NCBI GenBank assembly: GCA_001931535.1
Contig: CP016211.1
Coordinates: forward strand, 4,247,573 to 4,311,572
Length of the DNA: 64,000 nucleotides
Origin: Minicystis rosea
GTDB lineage: Bacteria > Myxococcota_A > Polyangia > Polyangiales > Polyangiaceae
Direction of reading: 5' to 3'
Positions 7,955 through 41,130 of this stretch are shown here, in pieces. The position numbers were made by a program, and so were the translations under genes. The notes beneath the pieces were generated by a model. It was not told where the DNA came from, did not search any database, and saw only the letters and a program-made list of their open reading frames with translations. Every line of letters begins with the position of its first letter. Positions within the stretch are counted from its first letter, which is position 1.

Positions 7955-8157
7955 CCCGGGCGCGGCTCGCGGCGCGTCGTGGAGCGCGGCCCGTCCTCGG
8001 GTGATTCGCGCGTCGCGGCCCGAGCGGAAGCTCGGCGTTGCGCGCGGCGAGCCTCCGATCAATAACGGGCCGCCCCGGGAGGCGCACGAGGGGCCGTCAT
8101 GTGGTGCACCGTGAAGACTGAGGAGCGTTCGGGAAAGCGGCCGCGGAGAGCGGGCGC

Positions 8158-10068
8158 ATGATCGTCCCTCAGCCCGGTGTCGTCATCGCGGGGAGGTACA
8201 CGCTCGTACGCCCTCTCGCGCGCGGCGGCATGGGCTCGGTCTGGATCGCGCACCACCGCGATCTCGAGGTCGACGTCACCGTGAAGTTCATGGCGCCGTC
8301 GCTCGTCGCGTCGCCCGATGCGCGCCTCCGCTTCGAGCGCGAGGCCAAAGGAGCGGCGCGGATCCGCAGCCAGCACGTGGTCCAAGTCCACGACTACGGC
8401 GTCGAGGACGAGACCCCTTACATCGTGATGGAGCTGCTCAAAGGCGAGAGCCTGTGGACGCGGCTCGCGCGGGAAGGTCGGCTCCCGCTCCCCGTCACGG
8501 CGCGCCTGCTCGTCCAAATCTGCAAGGCCCTGCGCACCGCACACGAGGCAGGCCTCGTGCATCGCGATCTCAAGCCCGGCAACATCTTCCTCGCGCTCAA
8601 GGACGACGACGAGGTGGTGACGGTCCTCGATTTCGGGATCGCCAAGACCTCGGGCATCGGCGACGCCACCGCCGACACCGACTCCGGGGTTCTGCTCGGC
8701 TCCGTGCACTACATGAGCCCGGAGCAGATCCGCAATTCACGCAAGGTCGATCTGCGCAGCGATCTCTGGGCCATCGGCGTCATCCTGTATCGCACGCTCG
8801 CCGGCCGCCTGCCCTTCCCCGGCGAGAACGTAGGCGACGTGCTCGTGCGCGTGTGCACCGATCCATGGCCCGCTCCGTCGACGATCTGCTCCGATCTCCC
8901 ATCACGGGTCGACGCGTTCTTCGAGCGCGCGCTGGCGCGTGATCCCGAGCGACGCTTCCAGTCCGCGCCGGAGATGGCCGAGGCCTTCAGCGCCATGGCG
9001 CTCGAAGCGGACGCCCCCGCATCGTCGGCCGCGCCCGCGCCGCCCTTCGTGGCCACGCCACCGGCCGCGCCCGCGCCGCCGGCATCGCAGCCACCGCCCT
9101 GGAGCCAGGTGGCACCGGCGAGCGCGCCCGCGCCTCGAGAAGCGGGCACGATGCGCATGAGCTCCGCCACCGCCGCGCAAGCAGCGCCGGCCTTCGCCCC
9201 GCAACGCGCAGCCTCGTCGCCCTCGATCGCACCGGCGGAGCCCATCGTGCCAGCGACGGCGCCCGCTCCGCCCACCTTCGCGCCGCCCACGCCGAGCGCC
9301 GGAGGGCGTTCGCTCCACGGCACCCTCATTCCCGCGCGCAGCGCCGTGGCCCAGCCCGCTCCGAGCCCCTTCGCGCAGGCCGCCCCGCCCCAACCCGCGC
9401 AACCGACTCAAAGCACCTTCGCGCCAAGCACGCTCGCGCAGGCCTCTCGAGACACTTTCTCGCCATCCACGCCGGCGCCGCAAAGCAACCTCGCTCGAAG
9501 CTCCTTCGACGAGCTGCCTCAAAGCACCTTCGGGCAAAGCACGCTCGCGCCGGCGCCGCAAAGCACCTTCGCGCCGCCCCCGCAGAGCACCCCGGCGCTG
9601 TCGATGCCAATCCCCAGCGCCCGCCCCGGCTCGAGCCCGATGCTCGCGCCGCCGAGCGAGCGGCCATCTCGCGTTCCTGCATCGGAGACGCTCCCCAAGC
9701 GCTCGTCCTCGCGCACCGTCGGCCTGGCGCTGGCGGCGACGGCGATCCTCGGTGTCCTCGGCGCCGCCATCCATTTCTCGGGCACATCACGCAGCGCCGC
9801 CACCGCGAGCACCGCTCCGCCGCCGGCCGCCACCCCGGCGCCGCCATCCGCCACCGCCGCGCCGCCGGCCGCCACCCTCGCACCAACGGCGAGCGCCACG
9901 TCCGAAGCCGAGCGCGCCACGCCTCCCACACCGAGCGCCACAGCGCTCTCCTCGGCGCCGGAGCCGCGCGCGCCCGAGCCCCCCAAGCGAGCCCCCACCG
10001 CGCCTACCGGTGCGCCGGCCAAGCCACCGTCGAAGCCGCGCAACAACCTCTTGGATCGCGCCGACTGA
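8158..10068 (+). CDS. Ser/Thr protein kinase (Hanks-type) with a Pro/Ala-rich linker, one TM helix and a Pro/Ala/Thr-rich C-terminal tail.
   Basis: The glycine loop reads LARGGMGSVW. The VAIK-like site reads VTVKFM. The catalytic loop reads HRDLKPGNIF, followed by DFGIAK and SPEQ. Imperfect QSTFAPSTLA repeats follow, then the TM segment VGLALAATAILGVLGAAIHF. Confidence 0.85.
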   Translation: MIVPQPGVVIAGRYTLVRPLARGGMGSVWIAHHRDLEVDVTVKFMAPSLVASPDARLRFEREAKGAARIRSQHVVQVHDYGVEDETPYIVMELLKGESLWTRLAREGRLPLPVTARLLVQICKALRTAHEAGLVHRDLKPGNIFLALKDDDEVVTVLDFGIAKTSGIGDATADTDSGVLLGSVHYMSPEQIRNSRKVDLRSDLWAIGVILYRTLAGRLPFPGENVGDVLVRVCTDPWPAPSTICSDLPSRVDAFFERALARDPERRFQSAPEMAEAFSAMALEADAPASSAAPAPPFVATPPAAPAPPASQPPPWSQVAPASAPAPREAGTMRMSSATAAQAAPAFAPQRAASSPSIAPAEPIVPATAPAPPTFAPPTPSAGGRSLHGTLIPARSAVAQPAPSPFAQAAPPQPAQPTQSTFAPSTLAQASRDTFSPSTPAPQSNLARSSFDELPQSTFGQSTLAPAPQSTFAPPPQSTPALSMPIPSARPGSSPMLAPPSERPSRVPASETLPKRSSSRTVGLALAATAILGVLGAAIHFSGTSRSAATASTAPPPAATPAPPSATAAPPAATLAPTASATSEAERATPPTPSATALSSAPEPRAPEPPKRAPTAPTGAPAKPPSKPRNNLLDRAD

Positions 10069-10087
10069 TCGAGCAAAAGGCCATGTG

Positions 10088-11020
10088 ATGCGCCAACTCC
10101 TCTGGCTCCCGGCGATCTTCCTCTGGACGCTCGTGCCCGCGGGCGCGCGCGCCCAGACCATCAGCCCCGAGGTCCACGCCCACGCGGAAGACACCTTCCG
10201 GCGCGGGCGCGACGCCTTCAACCAAGGTGAGTACAAGTCCGCGCTCCGGCTCTTTCGCACGAGCCAAGAGCTCGAAGCGGGCCGCGGCAAGCTCATCAAC
10301 ATCGCTTTTTGCGAAGAGAAGCTCGGCCTCGTGGCGTCGTCCGACAAGCACCTTCGCGAGGTCTTGCCGCAGCTCCCTACGGACGATCCGCGCATCGCGC
10401 TCGTGCAGCAGCACCTCGCCGAGCTTGCGCCGCGCATTCCTCATCTCCGCATCGTCCTCGCGGCCGGCGCGCCGCCCGGCACGCGTGTCAGCTACGATGA
10501 CACGCCCCTTCCCCAAACCTCGCTCGGCACCGAGATGGCCGTCGATCCAGGCACGCACGTGGTCAGCGCAAGCGCCCTCGGAAAACCGGAGAAGCGCTAC
10601 GAGGTGATCCTCGAAGAGGGCAAGCTCGTCGCCCTCACCGTCGATCCCGTGAACGCCGCACCACCACCGCCGCCGGCCGTCGCGCCGCCCTCGAACGAGA
10701 AGCGCACCGCCGGCTTCATCGTCGGAGGCTTCGGCGTCGCCGGCCTCGCCGCGGGCGCGGCCACGGGCATCGTCGCGCTCGTCGATCACGCCGCGATCGC
10801 GCGCGAGTGTCCCTCGCGCGTCAATTGCAGCCCCGAAGTCGTGCGCAAAGCCAACACCGGAAAGGCCTTATCCATCGCCAGCACGGCGACGTTCGCGGCG
10901 GGCGCCGCCGCCGTCGGGGTCGGGCTCTATCTCGTGCTCTCGAGCCGCTCACGCCCAACCACGGTGGGGATCTCGATCCTCCCCGACGGCGGACGCCTCG
11001 GCATCCAGGGGACTTACTGA
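10088..11020 (+). CDS. Secreted TPR-like/PEGA-domain protein with a C-terminal TM anchor.
   Basis: The signal peptide reads MRQLLWLPAIFLWTLVPAGARA. A TPR-like N-terminus follows (FNQGEYKSALRLF). The PEGA-like segment reads VSYDDTPLPQTSLGTEMAVDPGTHVVSASALG. A hydrophobic stretch AGFIVGGFGVAGLAAGAATGIVALV sits near the C-terminus. The ATG is 20 nt after the kinase stop. Confidence 0.7.
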   Translation: MRQLLWLPAIFLWTLVPAGARAQTISPEVHAHAEDTFRRGRDAFNQGEYKSALRLFRTSQELEAGRGKLINIAFCEEKLGLVASSDKHLREVLPQLPTDDPRIALVQQHLAELAPRIPHLRIVLAAGAPPGTRVSYDDTPLPQTSLGTEMAVDPGTHVVSASALGKPEKRYEVILEEGKLVALTVDPVNAAPPPPPAVAPPSNEKRTAGFIVGGFGVAGLAAGAATGIVALVDHAAIARECPSRVNCSPEVVRKANTGKALSIASTATFAAGAAAVGVGLYLVLSSRSRPTTVGISILPDGGRLGIQGTY

Positions 11021-11021
11021 C

Positions 11022-12386
11022 ATGAACCGAGCAAGCTGGAAGAGCTTCGGTCTCCTGATCCTTCCCACAGCCTGGGCCGGGTGCATCGCGCTCGAATGGG
11101 ACTACCGGGAAACATCTTCGTCCTCATCGTCCTCGTCTTCGTCGTCCTCGTCTTCGAGCGGCACCCCCAACGAATGCACCGGCGCCCCCGACGAAGTCGC
11201 ATGCGGCGTGGTCGGGCGCGTCTGTCGCAACGAGCAATGCGTCTGCGCGCAGGACGAGTGTGGCGGCCAATGCGTCGATCGGAACACGGATCCGAGCCAT
11301 TGCGGCAGTTGCGCCAACGCCTGCGGCAAGGGCATGACCTGTGTCGCGGGTGAATGCCAGTGCGGCCTCGGCCAATCGAAGTGCGACGGCAAGTGCGTGA
11401 GCACGGACAGCGACCCCGATCATTGCGGCGCCTGCAACCACGGTTGCCAGGGTGGAAAATGCGCGAGCTCGAAATGCGAGCCGCTCGTGCTCGCCAACGG
11501 GCAGACCGCGCCGGCCGGCATCGCCGTCGATGGTCAAAACGTCTATTGGACCAACTTCGGCAGTGGAACGGTGATGGCGATTCCCGTCGGTGGCAACGAC
11601 AACATGCCCACCACCTTGGCCGCGCCCGCGCCCGACGCCGGGCCTGCCGGCATCGCGGTCCAAGGCAATACGGTGTTCTGGGTGAACTACACCGCAGGCA
11701 CGGTGATGAGCGTACCCACCGGCGGCGGCCTATCCACCCCCCTCGCCACTGGGCAGAACAAGCCTTCCAGCATCGCCGTCGACGGCACCTACGTGTATTG
11801 GACCAACTATGGTGACGGCACCGTCATGAAGGTGCCCACGAAGAACGCCTCGGCCCCCGTCCCCCTCGCTTCGGGGCAGAGCTTTCCGCCGAAGCTCATC
11901 GATTCCGTGACGAGCGCCGTGCAGGGCCTCGCCGTCGACGGCACCCACGTCTATTGGACCAACTACGGTGACGGCAGCATCCGCAAAGTGGCCCTCGAGG
12001 GCGGCTCGGTGACGGCGATCGCCGAGAAGCAGAACAACCCTCAATGCCTCGCCGTGAACGGCACCAACGTCTATTGGACCAACCGGATCAGTGACTCGGA
12101 CGGCGCCGTCATGAAGGTCGCCACGAGCGGCGGTGAGCCCATCGTCCTCGCCGCCGGGCAGAGCGGCCCTTATGGCATCGCTTCGCAGGACCTGGCCGGC
12201 GTCTTCTGGACGAACAACAACCTCACCTTCGACAGCGGCACGGTGGCATCCGCGCCCCTCGCCGGCGGCGTCCACGTCTTCGTCGCCTCGGCACAAGCCC
12301 TCCCGACCGCCGTCGCCGTCGACGGCACCAGCGTTTACTGGCTGAATCACAACTTCGGCGGCTTCATCATGAAGGTCGCGAGATAG
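11022..12386 (+). CDS. Lipoprotein with a poly-Ser linker, a Cys-rich module and a six-bladed YWTD-type beta-propeller.
   Basis: The lipobox reads LLILPTAWAGC. Sixteen Ser are encoded by a tcgtcctcgtcttcg repeat. About 22 Cys follow in CxxC/CGxC patterns. Repeated blades read VYWTNFG, VFWVNYT, VYWTNYG (twice), VYWTNRI and VFWTNNN. The start is 1 nt after the previous stop. Confidence 0.75.
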   Translation: MNRASWKSFGLLILPTAWAGCIALEWDYRETSSSSSSSSSSSSSSSGTPNECTGAPDEVACGVVGRVCRNEQCVCAQDECGGQCVDRNTDPSHCGSCANACGKGMTCVAGECQCGLGQSKCDGKCVSTDSDPDHCGACNHGCQGGKCASSKCEPLVLANGQTAPAGIAVDGQNVYWTNFGSGTVMAIPVGGNDNMPTTLAAPAPDAGPAGIAVQGNTVFWVNYTAGTVMSVPTGGGLSTPLATGQNKPSSIAVDGTYVYWTNYGDGTVMKVPTKNASAPVPLASGQSFPPKLIDSVTSAVQGLAVDGTHVYWTNYGDGSIRKVALEGGSVTAIAEKQNNPQCLAVNGTNVYWTNRISDSDGAVMKVATSGGEPIVLAAGQSGPYGIASQDLAGVFWTNNNLTFDSGTVASAPLAGGVHVFVASAQALPTAVAVDGTSVYWLNHNFGGFIMKVAR

Positions 12387-12387
12387 C

Positions 12388-14199
12388 ATGCACGTCGTCT
12401 CCGCCTCTCCGCTCCGCGTCGCCTCGATCGTCTTTCAGCCGCGCAGAGGTGCCTTTGCGCTCACCGTCGTGTGCAAAGCCACCTTCCAGCTCGAGCCCGA
12501 CGTCTGCCGCCTCGCCGTCGCGCAGGAGGATCCGATCCAGGACGACATTCTCGGTGAGAGCGGCCTGCGCGCGCCGAGCGATCTCGTGCCCATGAAACCG
12601 CGCGCGGACGTCATCCTCGTGGGTCACGCCTTCGCTCCGGGAGGGCAGCCTGCGCGCACGGTGCGCGCGAGGCTCGTCGTGGGCGAGATCGACAAGTCCA
12701 TCGACGTCTTTTGCGATCGCATCTTTTGGCAGGACGGCCGGTTGCTCGAAGGACAGCCCTTCACCCAAATGCCAATCTCCTACGGGCGCGCCGCGTTCGG
12801 CCCGGAAAACCCGGCCGGCGTGCGCTTCGACGCGCCGCCCGACGCGAGCGGTGCGGTGCGGATTCCCAACCTGCAGCCCCAAGGCAGCCACATCGCCCGT
12901 CGCGGAGATACGTTTGCGCCCGTCGGATTCGGCCCCATCGCGCCGAGCTGGCCGGGCCGCGTGGAGAAGCTTCGACAGCACGCGGGCACGTGGTCGTTGC
13001 GGAGCCTCCGCGAATGGCCGCTCCCCGCCGAAATCGATCCTTCGTTCTTCAACGTCGCGCCGCGCGATCAACAGATGGAGGCAATTCAGCCCGACGAGCG
13101 GATCATCCTCGAAAACCTGTCCCCCGCTGCACCTCGCCTGGAGACGTGCCTGCCCGGCATTCAGCCCATCGCGCGCATGACGGCCGGCGGCCGGGCCGGC
13201 GAAGGGATGGCGCTCGTCGCCGACACGCTCACCATCGACACCGATCGATCCATCGTCACCGTGGTGTGGCGCGGGCGCGTGCCGCTCAACCACCCTGACG
13301 AATCCGGGCAGTTGGTGGTGACGATGGAAGGCGGCGACCTCCCCGGCGGCACAGCCATCCTCGGCGGCGAGGCCCACCCCGGCACCGTGCAGCTCGGCCC
13401 GGGCGGCGTCGCTCCTCCGATGCGAACGCCGTTTGCGGCCCCTTCGGGTGAAATCGAAACGCTCCTCGGCGGCAGCGGTGGTGGCCCAGCATTGCCGTTC
13501 ACCGCCGCCGGCAGCCCGTGGGTGGGTTTTCGCCCCAAGCCCCCTCCACCCAAGGACGCACCGCTGTCCGAGGGCACCGGCACGGTCTACGGCGTCAAGG
13601 GAAAGGCCAGAGACGTGCTGCCTTTCCCGGACGCCGCGCCCCGCGTCCCTCCGAGCGCGGCATTCGCACCGATGATCGATGTCGTGACGCCCGAGCCGCC
13701 CGCCCCGGAGGTGCGTGAGCCCGAGGCCCCGGAAACGCCTCCCCCACCCGAGCCGGAGCCGACGCCCAAAGCCGACATCGACATCTCGATCGAGCTTTGC
13801 GCGGCAATCCAAGCCTCCATCGACCGAAGCGGCGGGCAGAAGAAAGAGGTCTTGGAGAAACACGCTCTCTCCGACGACGTCTGGTCGGCCGCCGCCCAAC
13901 GCTGGGAAGCCGACATCGACACGGATGTCGAGCAGGGCAAAACCGATCTGCTCCAACGCTACGACGCGGCCTACATCGCGCAGATCGAAGAGGAGCGCGG
14001 GCCGATTCGACCCGAGGATTACGCGCGCCTCTCCGTCGCGGCGGAGCGCGGCACCACCGACGCCGTCCTCACCGAGCTCTCGATCCCCGAAGAGGCCGAG
14101 ATGCGCCTCGAGCGCGTTTGGCTCGACAAGGTGCTGCGCAGCCCGGCGCTCGCCAAACAGGTGCGCGAAGCGCGGGCCAAGGCCAGCGCCGAGGCCTGA
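12388..14199 (+). CDS. DUF2169 domain protein (T6SS-associated family) with an acidic/Pro-rich C-terminal half.
   Basis: The N-terminal core reads VASIVFQPRRGAFALTVVCKATFQLEPDV...DVILVGHAF...PVGFGPIAPSWPGR...FFNVAPRDQQ. It shares the (V/A)KATF / KGTF signature with the genes at 14204 and 45932. The ATG is 1 nt after the upstream stop. Confidence 0.75.
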   Translation: MHVVSASPLRVASIVFQPRRGAFALTVVCKATFQLEPDVCRLAVAQEDPIQDDILGESGLRAPSDLVPMKPRADVILVGHAFAPGGQPARTVRARLVVGEIDKSIDVFCDRIFWQDGRLLEGQPFTQMPISYGRAAFGPENPAGVRFDAPPDASGAVRIPNLQPQGSHIARRGDTFAPVGFGPIAPSWPGRVEKLRQHAGTWSLRSLREWPLPAEIDPSFFNVAPRDQQMEAIQPDERIILENLSPAAPRLETCLPGIQPIARMTAGGRAGEGMALVADTLTIDTDRSIVTVVWRGRVPLNHPDESGQLVVTMEGGDLPGGTAILGGEAHPGTVQLGPGGVAPPMRTPFAAPSGEIETLLGGSGGGPALPFTAAGSPWVGFRPKPPPPKDAPLSEGTGTVYGVKGKARDVLPFPDAAPRVPPSAAFAPMIDVVTPEPPAPEVREPEAPETPPPPEPEPTPKADIDISIELCAAIQASIDRSGGQKKEVLEKHALSDDVWSAAAQRWEADIDTDVEQGKTDLLQRYDAAYIAQIEEERGPIRPEDYARLSVAAERGTTDAVLTELSIPEEAEMRLERVWLDKVLRSPALAKQVREARAKASAEA

Positions 14200-14203
14200 T
14201 GTC

Positions 14204-15322
14204 ATGCCCACGAAGCGTGCTCCCGCGATCCCCGATCCGCGCCTGCAAACGATCAAGAACCTGACGCCGTTCGCCCTGTTCCAATGCGACAAGATGGGTG
14301 TCGGCCGCCGCTTTTACGATACGGTGACCGTCAAAGGCACCTTCGATTTGAAGCCGGGCTGCATGGAGCTCGCCCGCGAGCAGGCTCCAGTCCTGCTCGC
14401 GGACGATTATTGGGATCTGGAAACGCCCGAGCGCTCGAGCGTGAAGCGCGCCGGCGACGCGGTGCTCATCAAGCCCAGCACCGATGTCATCCTCACAGGC
14501 AGCGTGCATACGCCCGCAGGGAAGGCGCTCCGCGAATGGGACGCTGCCGTCCTCATCGAAGGACGCCGCGGCAAGGTCATCGACTACAGCGTTCAGGTCA
14601 CCGGACCACGCGTGTGGCGATACACCAGCACCCGCGGCTTCTCGCTCACGGATCCCGAGCCCACGGAGGAGGTTCCGATCCGTTACGAGCTTGCCTATGG
14701 CGGCGCCTACCTCGACCCGCGAAATGCTTCTCCCGAGGGCGATCCCAAGTGGATCGTCCACGAGCCCAACCCGAGCGGCACGGGCTTCTGTGACGAGCGC
14801 GCGCTGAGCCCAAACGAGCCCTACCGCGCACCACAATGGCAATCTCGCCTCGCGCCCGTGACGTCGCTCAACCACGATGTGCCCGTGTGCGGATTCGGCC
14901 CCATCTCCCGGCCCTGGAGCTCGCGCCTCCGCTACCAAGGCACCTGCGACGACGCTTGGGAGCAGGAGAACCGCGAGGCCGTCGCCAAAGGCCTTCCCGC
15001 CGACTATCCGGCCGACTTCGACGCTCGTTATTTCCAATGCGCGCATCCCTCCTTGATTGCCCCCGAGCACCTCGCGGGCGACGAGCACCTGGCCCTGGGT
15101 GGGATCGTCGCCGGTGAGGCTCGGTTCGTCACAGAGCTCCCTGGCATCGCCGTCGCGGCGCGCCTCCTCGACGGCTCCGGCGCATGGCACGACGAGCGGA
15201 TGCCGCTCGACACGGTGCACATCGATTTGGATGCAGGCGCCGTCCACCTGTGCTTTCGTCTCACCCTCGATCAAGCGCGCGACATCCTGGCGGCGGTGAT
15301 TTACACGACGGAGGCAACATGA
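14204..15322 (+). CDS. DUF2169 domain protein (second paralog).
   Basis: TPFALFQCDKMGVGRRFYDTVTVKGTFDLKPG...DVILTGSVHTP...VCGFGPISRPWSSR...YFQCAHPSL...LDTVHIDLDAG. The track ORF 13715..15322 begins inside the upstream gene. The ATG at 14204 follows the upstream stop by 4 nt. Confidence 0.75.
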   Translation: MPTKRAPAIPDPRLQTIKNLTPFALFQCDKMGVGRRFYDTVTVKGTFDLKPGCMELAREQAPVLLADDYWDLETPERSSVKRAGDAVLIKPSTDVILTGSVHTPAGKALREWDAAVLIEGRRGKVIDYSVQVTGPRVWRYTSTRGFSLTDPEPTEEVPIRYELAYGGAYLDPRNASPEGDPKWIVHEPNPSGTGFCDERALSPNEPYRAPQWQSRLAPVTSLNHDVPVCGFGPISRPWSSRLRYQGTCDDAWEQENREAVAKGLPADYPADFDARYFQCAHPSLIAPEHLAGDEHLALGGIVAGEARFVTELPGIAVAARLLDGSGAWHDERMPLDTVHIDLDAGAVHLCFRLTLDQARDILAAVIYTTEAT

Positions 15323-15669
15323 GCGAATCGCGACACATCGCCGATGCCGAAGCCGAGTTCCAAGTCGTCAACGTCACCCCCGACTTCTGCAAAGTGAACG
15401 GCAAGCGGGTGGCGTTCGACATCTTTCGGGATCTGACACCGCAGCGCGTGAACTATGCGAAGAAGGTCAGAGCGCGCGGCGTCCCCGTGCTGACGGTGGA
15501 CAGCGTCGTCGCCGGCGTGGTGGGGAACATGGGAGAGGGTGTGTTCTCGGGCGTGTCGAAGAGCTCGGGAGACGTGATCGTCGTTCAAGGCGTGGAGAAC
15601 GTCCGGGCCGAGCGCCGCTACGTGTGCCGAGATCAGGACATCTGTCTCATGAACGTGAAGGTGGGGTGA
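15319..15669 (+). CDS. PAAR-like protein (DUF4150 family) of 116 aa.
   Basis: GGAGG sits 5 nt before the ATG. The ATGA overlaps the previous stop. TPDFCKVNGKRVAF and GEGVFSGVSKSSGDVIVVQGVENV...NV resemble the DUF4150 (PAAR-like) PDVCKTP...GDEAG...GGV.S pattern. Confidence 0.6.
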   Translation: MSESRHIADAEAEFQVVNVTPDFCKVNGKRVAFDIFRDLTPQRVNYAKKVRARGVPVLTVDSVVAGVVGNMGEGVFSGVSKSSGDVIVVQGVENVRAERRYVCRDQDICLMNVKVG

Positions 15670-16634
15670 TGGCCGGCGCCCCCGACGACACCCTCGGTGG
15701 CTTGCTCCCACCGAGCTTCTCGAGCACCTTCCTGGCCAATGGCACCTTTGGGCGGATACGCACCGCGACCTGCCTCAAAGACGAGACCTACGAGCAGGGG
15801 CGAGCGCGTGAAGCGCTGGAGATCGCCGAGGAGCGATATCGCGCCGGCGGCCTCACCGGCCAGCAATCGCTACAACTTCGCGAGGAGATCGATCGCCTCT
15901 CCAAGATCGCTCGCCCCGGAATGGCCAACGCGTGGCCGCCGCTGAACGAAGCGGAGGTGCAAGCCATCGCGGACCAGCGGCGCGCCCTCAACACCGTAGG
16001 CATCTTTGCGGCCGGTCCGGTGATGGGCGCGCTCCCCGCGGCCGCGCGCATCGCCGGCGCCCCCGAGCCGGTGGTGGAAGCAGCAGCCCAGATCAACTTC
16101 GATCTGGCCACCTCCGGTGCCCTACACGGGCTCCCCAAAGGCACCGCCGAGCCGATCCCGATGGCGCGCACGATCACGGGCACGTACATCGAGCCGCACG
16201 TCGGAAAGCGCATCATCAAGATCAACGTCGATGCGTTCGCAGAGGGGCGCAACTTCCGCGACACCAACCAGGAGGCCCGCTCGCCCGAGGCCCGCGATCC
16301 CAACCGGGAGACGCCCATCGCCGAGCGCGTCAAGGCCAAGGAGGAGGCTTATTTCCTGAAGAAAGGCGAAGAAAGAGCGTTTCCCAACGGCAACATGGCG
16401 ACCGCACACGCCGAGATCGGCGCGCTCCAGCAGATCAACGAGGCCGGCCTCGCCAAAGGCAACGACATCCTCATCATCGTCTCGGGGGAGCGCGACGTGT
16501 GCTCTTTCTGCGTAGGCGACATCGCCGCCATGGGGCGCGAGATCGGCGCGCGCTCCATCACGGTCATCGACGTCTATCAAGGCAAGACCTTCTTCTGGAC
16601 AGAGGGCATGAGATCCATCGGAGATCCCCACTGA
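15669..16634 (+). CDS. Predicted T6SS-delivered polymorphic toxin. The N-terminal region is of unknown function. The C-terminal domain is a nucleic-acid/nucleotide deaminase (CDA fold).
   Basis: The start overlaps the PAAR-like stop (TGATG). Near the C-terminus the sequence reads NMATAHAEIGALQQINEAGLAKGNDILIIVSGERDVCSFCVGD. This places HAE 28 residues before CxxC, the zinc-deaminase signature (HAE at 16407-16415, CSFC at 16500-16511). Gene context: DUF2169, DUF2169, PAAR-like, toxin, then a small downstream ORF. Confidence 0.6.
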   Translation: MAGAPDDTLGGLLPPSFSSTFLANGTFGRIRTATCLKDETYEQGRAREALEIAEERYRAGGLTGQQSLQLREEIDRLSKIARPGMANAWPPLNEAEVQAIADQRRALNTVGIFAAGPVMGALPAAARIAGAPEPVVEAAAQINFDLATSGALHGLPKGTAEPIPMARTITGTYIEPHVGKRIIKINVDAFAEGRNFRDTNQEARSPEARDPNRETPIAERVKAKEEAYFLKKGEERAFPNGNMATAHAEIGALQQINEAGLAKGNDILIIVSGERDVCSFCVGDIAAMGREIGARSITVIDVYQGKTFFWTEGMRSIGDPH

Positions 16635-16647
16635 CAGGAGCATCCGC

Positions 16648-17061
16648 ATGAGCACCATGAGACTGTCGTGGGGTTTCGATCCCGGACCCAAAGCACGCGC
16701 CGAGCACCTGGCAGCGCCCACGTGGGCCGATGTCGAGGACAAGCTCGCTCGGCTCGCCGCCGCCCATACGGGCTCCATCAAGCTCGAGCTCCAACCGGCC
16801 CCCACGCTGGGCCCGCAGAGCCTCCAAGCCATCGCGGAGAATGGCACCTACCTCGTCATGCTGGGCGAGATGATCGAAGTCGACGGCGACGTCGATCACA
16901 ACGTGCGCACGCTCTACGATGCTTCCGCTACGCCGGGAAAGACGCTGATCATGGGCGATTTCTGGGACGCGCGCCAAACGTCGCGGGAGCCGGCCGTCGT
17001 GCGCGACGTCTTCAAAGACTTCTTCGAGACGGGCGACGTCTCCGCAGACAAGCTCTCTTGA
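16648..17061 (+). CDS. Putative cognate immunity protein (137 aa, cytoplasmic, acidic).
   Basis: It sits 13 nt downstream of the deaminase gene on the same strand and is of immunity-protein size. It contains LIMGDFWD with a conserved-looking Trp. The assignment is by position only. Confidence 0.45.
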   Translation: MSTMRLSWGFDPGPKARAEHLAAPTWADVEDKLARLAAAHTGSIKLELQPAPTLGPQSLQAIAENGTYLVMLGEMIEVDGDVDHNVRTLYDASATPGKTLIMGDFWDARQTSREPAVVRDVFKDFFETGDVSADKLS

Positions 17062-17171
17062 TGACGGGTTGTGCGGATGGCGCGCGGCGCGTTGCCCAGC
17101 GAAGGTGGCGAGTCGAGCGCGCGCACGATTGACCGAGAGAGCGGTGCACGGCCGCTCTCTCGGTCACATCT

Positions 17172-19490
17172 TCAGTTGAGGTCGATCGGATCGCCGATGA
17201 CCTGAACCTTGCCGCCTTGGAGCAGGGCGTCGGCTTCGGCCTTCACGGAGACCGCCTTCCCATCCACCTTCACCGAGTCCTTGCCCTTGACGATGATCTC
17301 GGTGCCTTCGAGCGTGATCTTCCCCGAGCTCTCCATCACGATCTTGGCCTTACCGCACTTGATCTCGATCTTCTTCCCGGCTTTGACGCTCTTCACGAGC
17401 CCGACCATCTCGTTGCTCATGAGGCCGACGGTCGTGCTCATGGCGCCGCCGACGGTCACCGAGTACATGCCGCCGACGGTCAGCGATTTGGCGAGGCCTA
17501 CCTTTTCGCTCGAGGCCTTTCCAACCGACTCGCTCTTCTGACCGCCGATCTTCACGCGCTGGCTCTTGCCGACCTTGACGCTCTCGTTCACGCCGACGAC
17601 GCGCGTGCGGCTCTTCCCCACCGTCTCGCGCTCGCTCCCCTTCACCTGCTTCACGCGGTCTTTGCCGATGGAGATCTCTTCGTCGTTCGCCACCACCTTT
17701 TGGCGATCGTGACCGATGACGACGGACTCGTCGTTCTTCACGAGCTTCTTCCGGTCGTGCTCGATGGTGATGGCCTCGTCGTTCTGGACGAGCTTCTGCC
17801 GATCGTGCGCGATGACGATGGTCTCGTCGTGGTTCACGATCCGCGTGCGATCGTGCTCGATCGTGATCTTCTCGTCGTGCTCGACCTTCTCCGTCCGGTC
17901 GTGGCCGATGGTGATGGTCTCGTCGTGCTTCACGAGCTTGTCGAGATCCTTCTCGGCTTGGATGTAGATCTGCTCGCGCCCCTTCGCGTCCTCCAAACGG
18001 ATCTCGTTGAAGCCGCCGCCGCCCGGGGAGGATTGGGTCTTCCACCCGCTCTGCGTCTTGTTGGCCGGCAAGGCGTAAGGCACGCGCTGCGTGGCCGTGT
18101 AGACACGGCCGGTGATCACGGGCCGATCCGGATCGCCGCCGAGGAAGTCGACGAGGACCTCCTGTCCGATGCGCGGCACGTTGATCATGCCGAAGCCGCC
18201 CCCGCTCCACGGGTGGCTCACGTGGATCCAACAAGAGCTGTTGTCATCCATCCGGCTCTCGCGATCCCAGTGGAAGTGCACGCGCACGCGCCCGAGCTCG
18301 TCGGTGTGGATCTCTTCGCCGGCGGGGCCGACCACCGTGGCGCTCTCCACACCGGAGATCTTCGGCCGCGGCGTCACGAGCGGCGGGCGGAAGGGCTGAT
18401 CCGTGCGGCGCGCCTCGCAACGATGGGTCCAGGCGCCGTCGTGCGTCCCGCGATGCGACGACTCGACCACGAGCACGGGCTTGCCTTTGCCGAGCTCGGC
18501 GCGCGGATGATCGAGGATGTCGAGCACCACCCCGGGGGCGAGATCGATGGCGTTGGTGTCGAACGAGCACACGCGCGCGCCGGCCCGCTTCGCTTCGAGG
18601 CGCTTCTTCGCGACGGACGCGCCCTCGCGCTCGTCGGTGCGCGTGCGGCCCTTGTCGTCGCCGAAGGGCGCGTCCCCCGCGGGCTCGGCGCCGAAGCTGA
18701 ACGCGCCGGGCACGTAGTGGAACCGCTCGAGCTTCGACTCCAGCCCGGCCTCCGGCGCGGAGGCCGCGGCGAGAAGCGCGTAGCCCGCGGGCAGGCGCGG
18801 GTCGTGATCGCGCACCGTGTAGCGGCCCGGGCGCACGCGTTGCCCGACGCGCACCTCGGTGACGTACTCGCGCGCGACGGCGCGGGTGGGTTTGTCTTCG
18901 AAGTGGAGGGACGGCCGAGCCTCGCCGGATTGCGGCGCGTCCGAGAGCACGAGGCGCGTCTCGGAGTCGCCCTGCTCGAAGAAGAACGAGATGCCCGCCT
19001 CCTCCAGCATCCGCGAGACGAAGGCGAAATCGGACTCGGCATATTGCACGCGATACTCGCGCTTCTTGTAGGTGCCCGAGATGCGGAGCTCGGGATCGAC
19101 GCCCCATTCCCGCAGAATCTTGCGCGCGATGTCGAGCTCGGAGAGCTGCTGGAACATGCGGTGATTGCGCCGCTGCGTGCTGAGCCAGAGGGCTGGGACG
19201 ATGTGAAGCTGATACGTCGAGAGGCCGGCCTCGGAGACCGCGACCTGCTGGATGTCCTTGCAGATCCCCGTCCAGAACCGGGTCGAGGAGAGCGCCGCCG
19301 TGCCGCCGTGCATGAGGAAGCTCGCCGGCCGGCCCACCACCGCATCGAAGTCGATGTTGGCCTGATCGGAGACCGCGACGATGACGATCTCGAAGAGCGC
19401 CGACATGCGCTCCTCCACCGCGAAGCTCCGGACGTCGAGCGCGTCACCGGAGTCGACGCGGACCACGAGGTTGCGCAGAGCGGCTGTCAT
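17172..19490 (-). CDS. vgrG: VgrG, the type VI secretion spike protein (Phage_GPD plus gp5-like C-terminal beta-helix repeats).
   Basis: The N-terminus MTAALRNLVVRVDSGDALDVRSFAVEERMSALFEIVIVAVSD is typical of VgrG. Also present are QLHIVPALWLSTQ..., the central GPD region and WIHVSHPWSGGGFGMINVPRIGQEV. A C-terminal array of 16-aa repeats (HDRTEKVEHDEKITIE, HDRTRIVNHDETIVIA, and so on) is encoded by DNA repeats at about 17600-17960. The start was chosen at the internal Met 19490 (the track start is 19607). Confidence 0.85.
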   Translation of the reverse strand: MTAALRNLVVRVDSGDALDVRSFAVEERMSALFEIVIVAVSDQANIDFDAVVGRPASFLMHGGTAALSSTRFWTGICKDIQQVAVSEAGLSTYQLHIVPALWLSTQRRNHRMFQQLSELDIARKILREWGVDPELRISGTYKKREYRVQYAESDFAFVSRMLEEAGISFFFEQGDSETRLVLSDAPQSGEARPSLHFEDKPTRAVAREYVTEVRVGQRVRPGRYTVRDHDPRLPAGYALLAAASAPEAGLESKLERFHYVPGAFSFGAEPAGDAPFGDDKGRTRTDEREGASVAKKRLEAKRAGARVCSFDTNAIDLAPGVVLDILDHPRAELGKGKPVLVVESSHRGTHDGAWTHRCEARRTDQPFRPPLVTPRPKISGVESATVVGPAGEEIHTDELGRVRVHFHWDRESRMDDNSSCWIHVSHPWSGGGFGMINVPRIGQEVLVDFLGGDPDRPVITGRVYTATQRVPYALPANKTQSGWKTQSSPGGGGFNEIRLEDAKGREQIYIQAEKDLDKLVKHDETITIGHDRTEKVEHDEKITIEHDRTRIVNHDETIVIAHDRQKLVQNDEAITIEHDRKKLVKNDESVVIGHDRQKVVANDEEISIGKDRVKQVKGSERETVGKSRTRVVGVNESVKVGKSQRVKIGGQKSESVGKASSEKVGLAKSLTVGGMYSVTVGGAMSTTVGLMSNEMVGLVKSVKAGKKIEIKCGKAKIVMESSGKITLEGTEIIVKGKDSVKVDGKAVSVKAEADALLQGGKVQVIGDPIDLN

Positions 19491-19642
19491 CTCCGCACCC
19501 CTGCTCGAGAACGAGGCAGCGTTCATCATTCCTCCCAAGGTGGGCCAAGCGACGAAGGGTGAAAGGGAGCTAACACGCTTCCCGGCGTCGCGAAAGCGCT
19601 GTCGCACGCGACGCCGTCACCCGCCCGTGATCACACTGCCTC

Positions 19643-34342: not shown

Positions 34343-37300
34343 TCAGGAGCGAAGGTCGGCGGACGAGAGGGAGCCGCCGGTGAGGACGAGCGTCTGGGCG
34401 TTCTCCGGGACGGCGGTGAGGAAGCGCTCGCGCCAAGCCGGGTCGCCGATGCGCGCGGCGCGCGCCAGGAGGCGGCGGCGCGCGAGGGTAGCAGCGCGGG
34501 AGAAGGCTTCGCGATCGCCCGACGCGGCGAGCGCTTCGACGTGAACGAGGCGGACGAGGGCTTCACCGTCTTCGATGGAGCCGAGCTCGTCGACGATGGC
34601 GAGCGCTTCGCGCGCGAGGACGAGCGCTTCGGCGGCGCGACCTTGGCGGAGGACGGCGCGCGCATGCAACGCCAAGGCAGGCGCACGAAGAGGCGGCGTG
34701 GTGCGGAGCAGATCGGTCGCGGCCGCGGCCTCGCGTTCGGCGCGGGCCGGATCGGCGGCGGAGAGCGCGATCTCGGCGAGGTAGCTGCGCGCGGCACCTT
34801 CGTGGCGCGGGTCCCCGAGGCGGCGGAAAGCGTCGGCGGCGCGCAGCTCGAGCTGCTCGGCTTCCTCCAAGCGGCCGAGGTGCGCGAGCGTGCGGCCGAG
34901 GTTCTGCGCGGCGGCGCTGGCGACGTCGACGAGGCCCATGCGCTCCGCGGCGGCGAGGGCGGCGCGCAGGGCGTCCTCGGCGCTGTCGAAGTCGCCGAGC
35001 TGCGCGAAGTTGCAGCCGAGGTTGGAGCGGACGGCGCAGGCGTTGCGACGATCGCCGGCGCTCTCCAGCGAGGCGAGCGAGGCTTCGAAGCGCGCGAGGC
35101 TCTCGCCCGGATCACCGGCGAGGCAGGCGCGAATGGCGGCGAGCTGCTCGAGCGCGGCGGCGACGGGCGCTTCGAGCATCGAGGGATCGGGCGCGACTTT
35201 GCGGAGGCGATCGATCATCCCATCGGCGGCGGCGTAGCGGCCGGCCATGACGAGGACGGTGGCGCACTCGCAGAGGCAGACGAGCTGCGCGCTGGCGGCA
35301 CCGCGGGCCGGCGCGGTGCGCGCGACGAGGGACATGCGATCCTCGACGCGATCGTAGCCGGCGAGGCGCCCGGCCGCGACCACGCTGAAGCCCACGGCGC
35401 GGAACCACGCGGCGGTGCCGATCGGTAAGAGCGCGGTGGCACCGGCGGCGCTCGCCTCCGCCTCCGCGAGCGCGCCGCGCCAGAGATGCGCTTCGGCTTG
35501 GATCAAGCGGAGGTAGCCGAGCTCTTCGCCTTCGGCGCCGCAGTCGACGCCGAAGGCGGCGCGCTCGACGGCGACGGTGAGATCGTCGGCTTCGAGGGCG
35601 AGCTCGGCCGCGCGACGGAACCAGCGGGCCGCGCGAGCTGGATCGGCGCCGCGACGGAAGTGCTCTGCGAGCGTCATGGCGTCCGCGTGCGCGTTGCGCT
35701 CGAGCCACTCGCCCGCGAGCATGTGGCCGAGCGCGCGATCCGGGCCGGTGAGCGTGGCGTAGGCGGCCTCGCGGACGAGGGCGTGCGCGAAGACGTAGAC
35801 CGCGTCGCCGGTGGGATCGGAGGCGCTCACCGGGATGACGATCTCGCGCGCGGCGAGCGCGTCGAGGGACGCGGCGACCTCGGCCTCGGATCGGCCGGGG
35901 ACCATGGCGAGGATGCCGCCGCGCGTGAAGCGTCGACCGAAGACGCTGGCCGCGCGCAGGACCCGCTTGGCCTCAGGGCCTTCGGCGTCGAGGCGCGCTT
36001 CGACGGTGCCGAGCACCGAGTCGGGCAGCGTCGCCTCGCGGCCCGCGGCGACGGCGCGCACCAGCTCTTCGAGGTAGAAAGGGTTGCCGTCGGCGCGATC
36101 GAGGACGCGGGCCACCACCTTCGCGTCAGCCTCGGCGCCGAGCGCGGTGCACACGAGCTGCTCGGAGGCCCGGCGTGGAAGCGGGCCCAACCGGATGAGC
36201 TGCACGTCGCGCTCGGCCCAGAGATCCGGGAAGCGATCGTGGATCTCGGGGCGCGCCAGCGCGAAGAACATGAGCGGCAGATCGCGGAGGTTGCGCAGCG
36301 TCGAGTCGACGAGGCGCATCGATGCGGCGTCGCTCCACTGGAGGTTGTCGAGGATCACGAGGACGGGCTGAGCGGCGCACTCCGCGGCGAGCCACTCCTC
36401 CCACGCGGCGCGCATGCCGTCGCCCATCAAGCGCGCGCTCTCGCGGGCCGCGCGGATGGCGCCGTCGCCGCCGTCCGGAAAGGGCGTGCCCGCGAGCTCG
36501 CCGAGGAACGCCGACGCGCGCGCCGCGACGGCGCGATCGAGGTGGCGCGCGACGCGGGCGCGCAGCTTGGCCTGACGGGCGGCGAGCGGCTCGCCGTCGA
36601 GGATGCCCGCGGCGCGGCGGACCAGATCGGCGATGATCGCGAAGGCCGAGCCGGCGCCGAGGCCTTCGCACGATCCGATGAGCACCTCCACGCGCTCGCT
36701 GCGCCGGCGCAGCGAGGTGAGGAGCTCGTGGCGGAGGCGGGTCTTGCCCATGCCCGCGTCGCCCACGACGAGGATGGCGCTCGCCGCCGGCTCGGAGACG
36801 CATCCATTGAAGATGCCCTCGAGCATCGCGAGCTCTCTCGCGCGGCCGATGCAGGGCATGGTGCGGCCGAGGAGAAGCGGCACGCCGTCGAACGCAGCGC
36901 GCTCGGGTTGGATGAAGCCGCCGGGGCCTTGTCGATCGACGCGGATGCGCCCCCCGATGAGCTCGGCGGTGGCCTCGTCGACATAGGCGCCCGTGGTGCG
37001 ACCGGCGCCGAGGGAGAGCACGGCGCGCTCGATCAAATCGCCGTCCACCACCTGCGCGGACACCTCGCCGCGGCCGCTGATCACGCACACGGGGAGCCCG
37101 CCGAAGCGCTCCTTGATGGCGAGGGCGCAGCGCGCGGCGCGCTCGGCGCGATCCACCGCGCTGCCCTCGCCCCACTGCGTGACGAGGAGCGAGCCACCGG
37201 CGAGCGCCATGGCCCGACCACCATGCGGCTCGACCGCGGCCTTGATGGCCGCGAGGCTCGGACGCCGGCGGCGGGCGGTGTCGTCGTCGACGCTGGGATC

Positions 37301-38239
37301 ACCGGCGAGGACGAGCGTCACGAGGCGCTGCTCGGAGAGCGTGAGCGAGGGCAAGGCCGCCGGCGGCGTGGAGACCGTGGCCGTGGGCGCGCCCAATCCA
37401 CGCACGAGATCGAGCGACTCCAACCGATCGAGCTCGGTGAGCACGGCCGCGGCATCGGATGGACGCGCGGCCGGATCGCGCGCCATCATGCGGGCCACGA
37501 GATCGTCGATCGGCTCGGGGATCGAAGGGCGGAGGATACGCAGGCGCGGCACCTCCTGCAGGAGGATCTTGGCCAGCATCGCCATGACCGTCGTCCCCTC
37601 GAACGCGGGGCGACCGGCGAGGCACTCGAAGAGGACGCATCCGAGCGAGAACAGATCCGCGCGCGGATCGTGCGCGGGCGCGCCCAGGATCTGCTCCGGC
37701 GCGATGTAGCCCGGGGTGCCGAGGAGCGCGCCGGTGCTGGTGAGGCGCTTGCCGTTCTCGCGACCGAGGCGGGCGATGCCGAAGTCGACGATCTTCACCC
37801 GCGCCACGTCGCCGCCGACGAGAAACAAGTTGCTCGGCTTGAGATCGCGGTGCACGAGGCCGCGCGCGTGCGCGAAGGCGAGCGCGTCGAGAGCGCGGCG
37901 GGCCAGCGTCAGCGTCTCGGCCGCGGTGAGCCCGCGGCGCAGCAAGCGAGCCGCGAGGTCCTCCCCGTCGAGCCATTCCATGGCCAGGTAGTGCTCGCCG
38001 GCGGCGGTGACGCCGTGGGCCACGTGCCGCACGATCCCCGGGTGGGAGAGGCCGGCGAGGATGTCGCCCTCGCGCGCGAAGCGCTCGACGTCGTGCGCAT
38101 CCTCTTCGCGGAGGATCTTCACCGCGACCCAGCCCCCGCCGACGCGGTCGCGCGCGCGGAACACGGTGCCCATCGCGCCTGCACCCGCTCTGCGCAAGGC
38201 CTCGAAGCGCTCCTCGAACACCACCGCAGTGACCACCAA
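34343..38239 (-). CDS. Ser/Thr protein kinase fused to a cyclase-like segment, a P-loop NTPase (AAA/STAND) domain and C-terminal TPR repeats (1298 aa).
   Basis: The glycine loop reads GAGAMGTVF, with VAVK, HRDLKPSNLF, DFGIAR and APEQ. The P-loop reads GDAGMGKTRL. A long helical/TPR C-terminus ends ...RERFLTAVPENAQTLVL. The overlapping 2009-aa plus-strand ORF is antisense junk. Confidence 0.85.
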   Translation of the reverse strand: MVVTAVVFEERFEALRRAGAGAMGTVFRARDRVGGGWVAVKILREEDAHDVERFAREGDILAGLSHPGIVRHVAHGVTAAGEHYLAMEWLDGEDLAARLLRRGLTAAETLTLARRALDALAFAHARGLVHRDLKPSNLFLVGGDVARVKIVDFGIARLGRENGKRLTSTGALLGTPGYIAPEQILGAPAHDPRADLFSLGCVLFECLAGRPAFEGTTVMAMLAKILLQEVPRLRILRPSIPEPIDDLVARMMARDPAARPSDAAAVLTELDRLESLDLVRGLGAPTATVSTPPAALPSLTLSEQRLVTLVLAGDPSVDDDTARRRRPSLAAIKAAVEPHGGRAMALAGGSLLVTQWGEGSAVDRAERAARCALAIKERFGGLPVCVISGRGEVSAQVVDGDLIERAVLSLGAGRTTGAYVDEATAELIGGRIRVDRQGPGGFIQPERAAFDGVPLLLGRTMPCIGRARELAMLEGIFNGCVSEPAASAILVVGDAGMGKTRLRHELLTSLRRRSERVEVLIGSCEGLGAGSAFAIIADLVRRAAGILDGEPLAARQAKLRARVARHLDRAVAARASAFLGELAGTPFPDGGDGAIRAARESARLMGDGMRAAWEEWLAAECAAQPVLVILDNLQWSDAASMRLVDSTLRNLRDLPLMFFALARPEIHDRFPDLWAERDVQLIRLGPLPRRASEQLVCTALGAEADAKVVARVLDRADGNPFYLEELVRAVAAGREATLPDSVLGTVEARLDAEGPEAKRVLRAASVFGRRFTRGGILAMVPGRSEAEVAASLDALAAREIVIPVSASDPTGDAVYVFAHALVREAAYATLTGPDRALGHMLAGEWLERNAHADAMTLAEHFRRGADPARAARWFRRAAELALEADDLTVAVERAAFGVDCGAEGEELGYLRLIQAEAHLWRGALAEAEASAAGATALLPIGTAAWFRAVGFSVVAAGRLAGYDRVEDRMSLVARTAPARGAASAQLVCLCECATVLVMAGRYAAADGMIDRLRKVAPDPSMLEAPVAAALEQLAAIRACLAGDPGESLARFEASLASLESAGDRRNACAVRSNLGCNFAQLGDFDSAEDALRAALAAAERMGLVDVASAAAQNLGRTLAHLGRLEEAEQLELRAADAFRRLGDPRHEGAARSYLAEIALSAADPARAEREAAAATDLLRTTPPLRAPALALHARAVLRQGRAAEALVLAREALAIVDELGSIEDGEALVRLVHVEALAASGDREAFSRAATLARRRLLARAARIGDPAWRERFLTAVPENAQTLVLTGGSLSSADLRS

Positions 38240-38389
38240 CGCTCACGTGTACCGGAGATCCGCGGGCGCCGGGAGCGGAAAGTGGCTGCCCTCGCATCGA
38301 GATGCGAGCGCCCGATGTCTCACCTGCGGCGGCTCCCGCTGCCCTCGCCCGCGCCGCGCGCCGGAGACCGCGGCTTCGAGCGCTGGATC

Positions 38390-40522: not shown

Positions 40523-40570
40523 TCCTCGACATCACCGACGATTTCGTGGCAGTCCGCGCGGCGCGAACCG

Positions 40571-41044
40571 TCAGCGCGCCGCGCCGGGCTCGCCCACCGG
40601 CGTGCCGTCGACCGTCGGCGGCGCCGCCTTCTCGATGGACAGGGCGAAGCGCGCCTCGGTGACGGCGGCCTCGAGATCGGCCACGGCCTTCTCGAACGAG
40701 ACCTCGCACCACGTGTCGAGCGTGCGCTGCCCATCGCCGGGATCGACCACGCGGCGGACCTCGGCCGAGGCCTCCTCGTAGCCGCGATCGACGGCGGGCG
40801 CCGCGAGACGGCGGGCACGCTCGAAGAGATGCGCTTCCCCTTCGTTGGGGAAATCGTTGTGCTGGGCGCGCACGACGAAGCCCACCCGCGTGGCCGGCGG
40901 CTCGCCGGCGCGGATGAAGATCTGCGCATCCATCAGCAGGTTTTCGCGCACCCGATCCGCGAGGTGCACCGTGTTCCCTCGCGTCTGGTAGATCTCGAGC
41001 CCAGCTTCACGCAGGGCCTTCTTGATTTCTGCAGGCGTCGGCAT
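40571..41044 (-). CDS. Hypothetical protein (157 aa).
   Basis: It is a clean ORF with normal composition downstream of the PilZ gene on the same strand. I recognise no family. Confidence 0.5.
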   Translation of the reverse strand: MPTPAEIKKALREAGLEIYQTRGNTVHLADRVRENLLMDAQIFIRAGEPPATRVGFVVRAQHNDFPNEGEAHLFERARRLAAPAVDRGYEEASAEVRRVVDPGDGQRTLDTWCEVSFEKAVADLEAAVTEARFALSIEKAAPPTVDGTPVGEPGAAR

Positions 41045-41130
41045 CGACCGTGTCCGCGTGCCGGATGGGCCGGCGCATGCACTTTTCGCAAATTCCTGCG
41101 GTCCCCGTCAAGCAGAGGGACCGGGCGCCG

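Follow-up and report, generated by a model that had tools for sequence, protein, structure and literature searches.

The MafB19 clade of deaminases was defined on the Neisseria MafB toxins by Iyer et al. in 2011 (PMC3239186). Its signatures are an N that ends strand 2, HxE in helix 2, a V that ends strand 3, a +xxCxxC motif at helix 3 and a G that starts strand 4, and its members are delivered by type II, type V or type VI secretion systems (T2SS, T5SS or T6SS) or by MafB-N, with RHS or haemagglutinin-repeat fusions (PMC3239186). In a screen of 175 deaminases, in which the MafB19 family was defined by the Iyer profile, nearly all DNA-active enzymes belonged to five families, MafB19 among them (bioRxiv 10.1101/2023.06.29.547047). 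As for T6SS spikes, DUF2169 proteins co-occur with DUF4150/"PIPY" PAAR-like domains and are needed for a functional PIPY-VgrG spike (PMC11883445). Here we describe a gene in the 16-Mb genome of the myxobacterium Minicystis rosea, lying in a 64-kb stretch that was analysed whole and is called the window below. We propose, with a probability of about 75%, that this gene encodes a two-domain T6SS cargo effector, with a deaminase of the MafB19 clade at its C-terminus and a DUF6911 protein as its immunity partner.

Translation of the effector gene gives HAEIGALQQ from residue 247 (nt 16407-16433; HAE itself is residues 247-249, nt 16407-16415) and CSFC at residues 278-281 (nt 16500-16511), with V277 just before the first Cys and 28 residues between E249 and C278. 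In NCBI, the start of the identical protein, A7982_03648, is placed one codon earlier, at a GTG (15666). A preliminary description of this DNA had pointed to the HAE...CxxC motif and its spacing, and the translation agrees; the pattern H[AC]E-x(20-35)-CxxC, run over all six frames of the window, finds a single site, which is the one in the effector. The motif match is not a chance one, because the Pfam model PF24241 Deam_C ("putative cytidine deaminase C-terminal domain") scores 114.1 bits here (E 5.8e-33), four times its cut-off of 27 bits, over profile positions 3-133 of 136. The same domain also gives faint matches, below their cut-offs, to MafB19-deam, dCMP_cyt_deam_1 and Pput2613-deam.

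A profile search started from three sequences gave 107 relatives, all with PF24241. Among them are the C-termini of filamentous-haemagglutinin/adhesin/CdiA, RHS and Neisseria MafB toxins, and proteins of Pseudomonas aeruginosa, P. syringae, Serratia, Yersinia and Xanthomonas. One relative, a fragment of a Neisseria gonorrhoeae "MafB family polymorphic toxin" (P0044), combines PF06255 with PF24241, and by BLASTP its C-terminus is 45% identical to the M. rosea domain over 130 aa (E 1e-27). An exhaustive search of 1.84 billion representatives returned 253 clusters, in which deaminase carriers reach 4902 aa. In a 74-sequence alignment, H, A, E and both Cys of the motif are at least 90% conserved, and N240 is the single invariant column. 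All five signatures of Iyer et al. are present in the effector: N240, H247/E249, V271 (within the strand DILIIVSG), R275-x-x-C278-x-x-C281 (as R275-D-V-C278-S-F-C281) and G293, which precedes the strand SITVID.

By its sequence, then, the C-terminal domain belongs to a family that is already in the catalogues, MafB19 / Pfam Deam_C, and is a rather typical member of it. The preliminary description was right about the kind of protein, a deaminase toxin, and wrong about its novelty, its comparison family and the size of its domain. It had called the deaminase new and possibly a divergent clade, and the domain proves to be a regular PF24241 member close to the Neisseria MafB deaminase. The Val in place of Pro before the first Cys, taken there for an oddity, is what the family consensus has (VCGYC in the 74-sequence alignment). 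The "minimal core" of about 80 aa is a domain of about 135 aa (181-318 by Pfam; 185-311 by AlphaFold secondary structure), and the likeness drawn to DddA and SCP1.201-like toxins does not hold, the domain being of the MafB19 clade: no SCP1.201 deaminase profile of Pfam matches the effector at E<=1.

An AlphaFold2 model of the deaminase domain, built on the 74-sequence alignment, has a predicted local distance difference test score (pLDDT) of 89 and a predicted template modelling score (pTM) of 0.81. Its ordered part, residues 185 to 311, runs through a beta-hairpin, helix 1, a short strand, helix 2, strand 3, helix 3 and two antiparallel strands that form a C-terminal beta-hairpin; helix 2 begins right after H247 and helix 3 right after C278. 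In the structure-comparison table the highest values are those of PPR-DYW (9.5), DddB / BaDTF3 (9.2), TOD6 (8.4), cytidine deaminase (8.0), DddA (7.5) and SsdA (7.1), followed by Blasticidin-S deaminase, APOBEC3G/H and TadA. With Foldseek against the PDB the top matches are again deaminases, at template modelling (TM) scores of 0.4-0.5 and none at E<=1e-3. The predicted model thus confirms a deaminase fold. Searching the PDB by sequence, with either the protein itself or the 74-sequence profile as query, gave no significant match, only weak TadA/guanine-deaminase alignments (E 0.27-0.9); by these searches and Foldseek, the MafB19 clade is one without a solved representative. From the placement of the motif, H247, C278 and C281 would form a single zinc site, with E249 as the proton shuttle.

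What, then, would the deaminase act on? In the 175-enzyme screen, MafB19 enzymes deaminated cytosine of single-stranded DNA (ssDNA) and double-stranded DNA (dsDNA), with a tendency to C followed by G (bioRxiv 10.1101/2023.06.29.547047), and MafB19 (PF14437) members deaminate C of ssDNA as base editors (bioRxiv 10.1101/2023.05.21.541555). DddA, SsdA and a BaDTF3 toxin are toxic, mutagenic DNA deaminases (PMC7901873; PMC13346905). By analogy with these family data, the substrate of the M. rosea deaminase is probably DNA cytosine. The main rival on this point keeps the same layout of toxin, immunity and T6SS and makes RNA the target, so that C or A of tRNA, rRNA or mRNA would be deaminated and translation poisoned. 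In sequence, solved proteins resemble the domain only weakly and only around HAE...CxxC, which aligns with TadA-like (2a8n) and guanine deaminases; one family member (P0037) is named "tRNA-specific A34 adenosine deaminase", and in the screen four of the five active toxin families each had at least one member whose RNA activity exceeded that of APOBEC3A (bioRxiv 10.1101/2023.06.29.547047). We nevertheless consider an RNA target improbable: the name of P0037 is automatic and of no experimental weight, the MafB19 family is itself DNA-active, as just described, and the three characterised families of bacterial deaminase toxins (DddA, SsdA, DddB) all act on DNA.

The high conservation of the motif bears on another alternative, in which the substrate would be free nucleotides or nucleosides (such as dCTP/CTP or a cofactor), or in which the domain would have no catalysis at all and poison the cell simply by binding. 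Since H, E and the two Cys of the active site are all present and conserved, the domain should not be dead; moreover, the family is confined to the C-termini of polymorphic toxins with dedicated immunity genes, and polymeric DNA is the substrate of family members. Either form of this alternative is highly improbable, and we retain DNA cytosine as the likely substrate.

Directly downstream, 13 nt past the effector stop, begins the open reading frame (ORF) of the DUF6911 protein. In all four loci opened, namely the window, a metagenomic relative in which part of the N-terminal domain is also present (L009), an orphan RHS C-terminal module (L010) and an orphan CdiA module of Serratia plymuthica (L011), DUF6911 comes directly after Deam_C. 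In an alignment of the four DUF6911 proteins, identity is 30-37% and 26 columns are invariant. Because DUF6911 succeeds Deam_C in every locus opened, we infer from this conserved linkage that it is the cognate immunity family of Deam_C toxins. The arrangement is that of polymorphic toxin-immunity systems, with a toxin domain at the C-terminus, varied delivery regions (CdiA, RHS, MafB, T6SS cargo) and a small gene downstream. The effector-immunity position that the preliminary description saw between a PAAR-like gene and a small ORF is likewise confirmed: the gene lies in a T6SS spike module of two DUF2169 genes, the PAAR-like gene and vgrG, and the ORF downstream is DUF6911. In sequence the DUF6911 candidate also resembles, weakly (E 0.002), an "uncharacterized protein" in the PDB, 6anz_A, which may be an unrecognised solved relative of this immunity family.

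How this pair behaves in evolution can be seen from a metagenomic contig (JGI 3300036768, here L001) that is syntenic with 8141-19491 of the window. The two are similar at the DNA level through the DUF2169 genes and the PAAR-like gene and on into the effector, of which the first ~135 codons are included; similarity is lost at 16075 and regained at 17170, within vgrG. The L001 effector (P0002, 8001-8966) shares the N-terminal domain and has a different C-terminal domain without a Pfam match. Toxin domain and immunity gene thus form a cassette that can be exchanged while the delivery module in front of it is conserved, and the replacement pattern is the recombination behaviour expected of polymorphic toxins. 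The G+C content of the PAAR-like, effector and immunity genes (15319-17061) is 62-66%, against 69.6% for the window, which is consistent with a horizontally exchanged cassette. In L001 there is no immunity ORF, the convergent vgrG lying 6 nt past the effector stop; its immunity gene may be elsewhere, or its toxin may not be aimed at bacteria.

The N-terminal domain had been described as uncharacterised, and so it is by Pfam and NCBIfam: for residues 1-175 no model of either scores above its cut-off (MIX/FIX/RIX/PIX and prePAAR were not searched with dedicated models), and no N-terminal Pfam family matches in 23 relatives. DUF7856, at 19.3 bits against a cut-off of 30.2 and in the query alone, was dropped, as it is absent from all 23. 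The helical region has two further motifs, LRxEIDRLS and GAPExVVE, and the AlphaFold model of the domain is all-helical with a pLDDT of 71. Among the 150 relatives listed, 22 share the N-terminal domain alone and differ in their C-termini. The recognisable C-termini behind it are Colicin_D, Ntox50, Ntox46, GH-E and Deam_C, with many others that have no Pfam match; at least five toxin types other than the one here are joined to the domain. Its matches come mostly from metagenomes. A word-indexed profile search with the N-domain alignment gave no match, and a scan of genome contigs for the domain gave 85 pattern matches, none of which was confirmed.

The loci of ten proteins with this domain were opened, the window's own and nine relatives. 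In eight of them (the window, P0002, P0138, P0181, P0212, P0168, P0208 and P0213) a PAAR-like gene for 114-117 aa lies directly before the N-domain protein. Stop and start overlap by 1-4 nt in those eight, L008 with a 15-nt gap being the exception, and in M. rosea the effector ATG shares 1 nt with the stop codon of the PAAR-like gene. DUF2169 is upstream in every N-domain locus where the upstream ORF could be scanned. Because of this conserved position after the PAAR-like gene, we read the N-terminal domain as the docking part, which would attach the cargo to a stand-alone PAAR-like tip.

It could also be that the domain crosses the inner membrane of the target cell as a translocation domain, or that it is a pre-toxin linker with no partner. 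Such roles would suit a conserved Gly/Pro/Ala-rich, moderately hydrophobic segment at residues ~108-150, which is predicted at low confidence, and the proteins P0111 and P0215, in which the helical part sits behind unrelated N-terminal regions. The best 19-residue Kyte-Doolittle mean of the segment is 1.1-1.6 in most members, and a transmembrane helix there, considered and rejected, is not supported by values that are mostly below 1.6 and, in nearly all members, under the usual transmembrane threshold. The strict adjacency and translational coupling to the PAAR-like gene in eight of ten proteins also speak for loading, so that a translocation or linker role in place of tip loading is, in our view, unlikely; translocation and loading can, however, coexist.

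It is tempting to propose, tentatively and at somewhat less than even odds, that the N-terminal domain is an undescribed marker of T6SS cargo that belongs with stand-alone PAAR-like (DUF4150/PIPY-type) tips of 114-117 aa and DUF2169, and, separately, that the deaminase has an unusual substrate or context preference (dsDNA or CpG). If so, the domain could be used to search for new toxin domains, a number of which lack a Pfam match, and its effectors would be a split version of fused PIPY-toxin effectors; a preference for dsDNA or CpG would be useful in base editing.

One N-domain relative, P0155 (in L004:1-9592, GCA_009612815.1 contig WBZS01001192.1), ends an array of orphan toxin/immunity cassettes. 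The array has Endonuclea_NS_2 with a YezG-like partner twice and a Colicin_immun gene, with a phage-type integrase nearby and a MafI2 immunity gene downstream.

The genes around the effector are ordered DUF2169-DUF2169-PAAR-like-effector-immunity, with vgrG convergent with this operon, and the DUF2169/PAAR-like/effector order is shared by the loci of seven further relatives. This is a T6SS spike-loading set. The stop of the second DUF2169 gene overlaps the start of the PAAR-like gene by 4 nt (ATGA). The PAAR-like protein is 47-77% identical to its 116-aa orthologues in L001, L005, L006 and L008, which are themselves recorded as Tox-PAAR-like, and it has VAFDI at the expected position of the PIPY motif. 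Single DUF2169 genes (351-386 aa) occupy the equivalent position in L001, L005, L008, L012 and L014. The window contains no second copy of the N-terminal domain, the deaminase domain, the immunity gene or the PAAR-like gene. Coordinates are collected in Table 1.

Table 1. Features of the M. rosea effector locus, in positions of the window.
Feature	Position	Strand	Details
DUF2169 gene 1	12388..14199	+	603 aa; PF09937 E 2.7e-68; domain residues 21-295
DUF2169 gene 2	14204..15322	+	372 aa; PF09937 E 1.1e-68
PAAR-like (DUF4150/Tox-PAAR-like), presumed spike tip	15319..15669	+	116 aa, stand-alone
Effector gene	15669..16634	+	321 aa; 100% identical to M. rosea hypothetical protein A7982_03648
N-terminal modular domain	15702..16193	+	residues ~12-175; NGTxGRI..C motif, then five predicted helices
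Replaceable cassette (toxin domain + immunity gene)	16076..17169		blastn against L001
Deaminase toxin domain, Pfam Deam_C / MafB19 clade	16209..16622	+	residues 181-318
Immunity candidate, Pfam DUF6911	16648..17061	+	137 aa; PF21852 E 1.4e-25; Imm1 weak, E 0.038
Inverted repeat, perfect 15 bp, 7-nt loop	17130..17166		between the convergent immunity gene and vgrG
VgrG spike protein	17172..19607	-	811 aa; Phage_GPD E 2.5e-71, Gp5_trimer_C E 1.5e-51, Phage_base_V E 2e-13

Taken together, the pathway that we propose is as follows. The helical N-terminal domain of ~170 aa would attach the effector to the tip encoded by the translationally coupled upstream gene, and the two DUF2169 proteins would act as chaperones that help this tip cap the neighbouring VgrG spike. 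Firing of the T6SS would carry the effector complex into an adjacent cell, where the deaminase domain, by analogy with members of its family and with DddA, SsdA and DddB, would convert cytosine to uracil in the victim's DNA. The expected consequences are breakage through base-excision repair, arrest of replication and C-to-T mutation. In the producer and its kin, the DUF6911 protein would bind and block the toxin.

Several points weigh against this proposal. The choice between DNA and RNA and between C and A, as well as the sequence context, would be extrapolations from other family members, and PF24241 is equated with the MafB19 family of the screen through their shared Neisseria MafB prototype, not through a direct match. 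For docking, the basis is gene order, and two of the loci, L004 and L009, have no intact PAAR-like gene directly upstream: the former has a degraded PAAR-like remnant among the orphan cassettes, and the latter a different N-terminal extension. The PAAR-like protein scores 25.9 bits (E 1.2e-5) with PF13665 Tox-PAAR-like, below the cut-off of 31 bits. Finally, T6SS core genes (TssB/C, Hcp etc.) were not found among the window ORFs scanned, and an active T6SS in the M. rosea genome is assumed.

Some other features of the window may be recorded. The inverted repeat between the immunity gene and vgrG may be a hairpin that terminates transcription from both sides; it lacks a T tract, and the consensus terminator scan missed it. 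In the operon, the consensus scan gave no sigma-70-like promoter and no convincing terminator. The first DUF2169 protein has a C-terminal extension of ~300 aa, a Pro-rich linker with a helical tail, for which Pfam has no match, and a tandem DUF2169 pair is also seen in related loci (L001, 4827-6554 and 6551-7654). Directly upstream of the DUF2169 genes is a gene (11022-12386, +) for a 454-aa protein in which 17 serines stand in a row; it also has Stig1-like Cys-rich repeats and, by a weak match to Vgb_lyase/DUF5050, a region resembling a beta-propeller, and L001 has a counterpart in the same place. At a distance of 30 kb from the module there is a third DUF2169 gene (45932-47911, +; 659 aa, E 5.5e-60). 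The ORF after it (47584-49041) has an FGE-sulfatase domain, and the large ORFs scanned in its neighbourhood gave no match to PAAR-like or VgrG families. An ORF for 2009 aa (35486-41515, +) has no Pfam match at E<=1e-5 and is overlapped by long ORFs on the opposite strand.

As to what the locus adds, the deaminase is a myxobacterial T6SS-cargo addition to the MafB19 family, which has already been screened for DNA-deaminase tools, and not a new class of enzyme. A compact domain of ~135 aa with a putative antidote in DUF6911 would be convenient for structure determination and base-editor work, and DUF6911 itself becomes assignable as an immunity family for Deam_C toxins. The N-terminal domain would mark small effectors that are carried as cargo along with stand-alone PAAR-like tips, by which the recently described DUF2169-PIPY-VgrG spike model would be extended from fused to split effectors.

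Among the characterised deaminase toxins, DddA of Burkholderia cenocepacia (BaDTF1, SCP1.201-like) is of another clade, with 15-16% identity in the structural alignment, and is itself a large effector with a different delivery region. As to DddB (BaDTF3, Pput_2613-like), Pput2613-deam scores 15.4 bits (E 0.017) here, below its cut-off of 25 bits. The substrate preferences of DddB and of SsdA (BaDTF2, bacterial DYW-like) are not transferable to the M. rosea deaminase.

With the MafB19-clade domains of Neisseria MafB and of CdiA and RHS C-termini in Pseudomonas and Serratia the agreement is much closer, and the DUF6911 partner is the same as that of the RHS and CdiA versions. Pfam PF24241 overlaps in part with PF14437 MafB19-deam. 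The M. rosea domain differs from these relatives in an insertion of six residues after helix 1 and in one more residue before the first Cys. Those relatives are fused to MafB-N, RHS or filamentous haemagglutinin, whereas here the domain belongs to a small T6SS cargo with an uncatalogued N-terminal domain. The immunity partner also differs from those listed by Iyer et al. for the MafB19 clade, SUFU/SUKH in their account and DUF6911 in the M. rosea locus.

The delivery genes, for their part, resemble the DUF2169-DUF4150(PIPY)-VgrG modules of P. aeruginosa Tse7, Vibrio parahaemolyticus VP1415 and Agrobacterium Tde2, which have the same accessory set (PMC11883445). The M. rosea module is distinguished from them by its two tandem DUF2169 genes and by VAFDI in place of PIPY. 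Toxin and PIPY domain form one polypeptide in the cases studied (Tse7, VP1415, PefE), whereas in M. rosea the tip is a separate protein and the toxin comes with a conserved N-terminal domain of its own.

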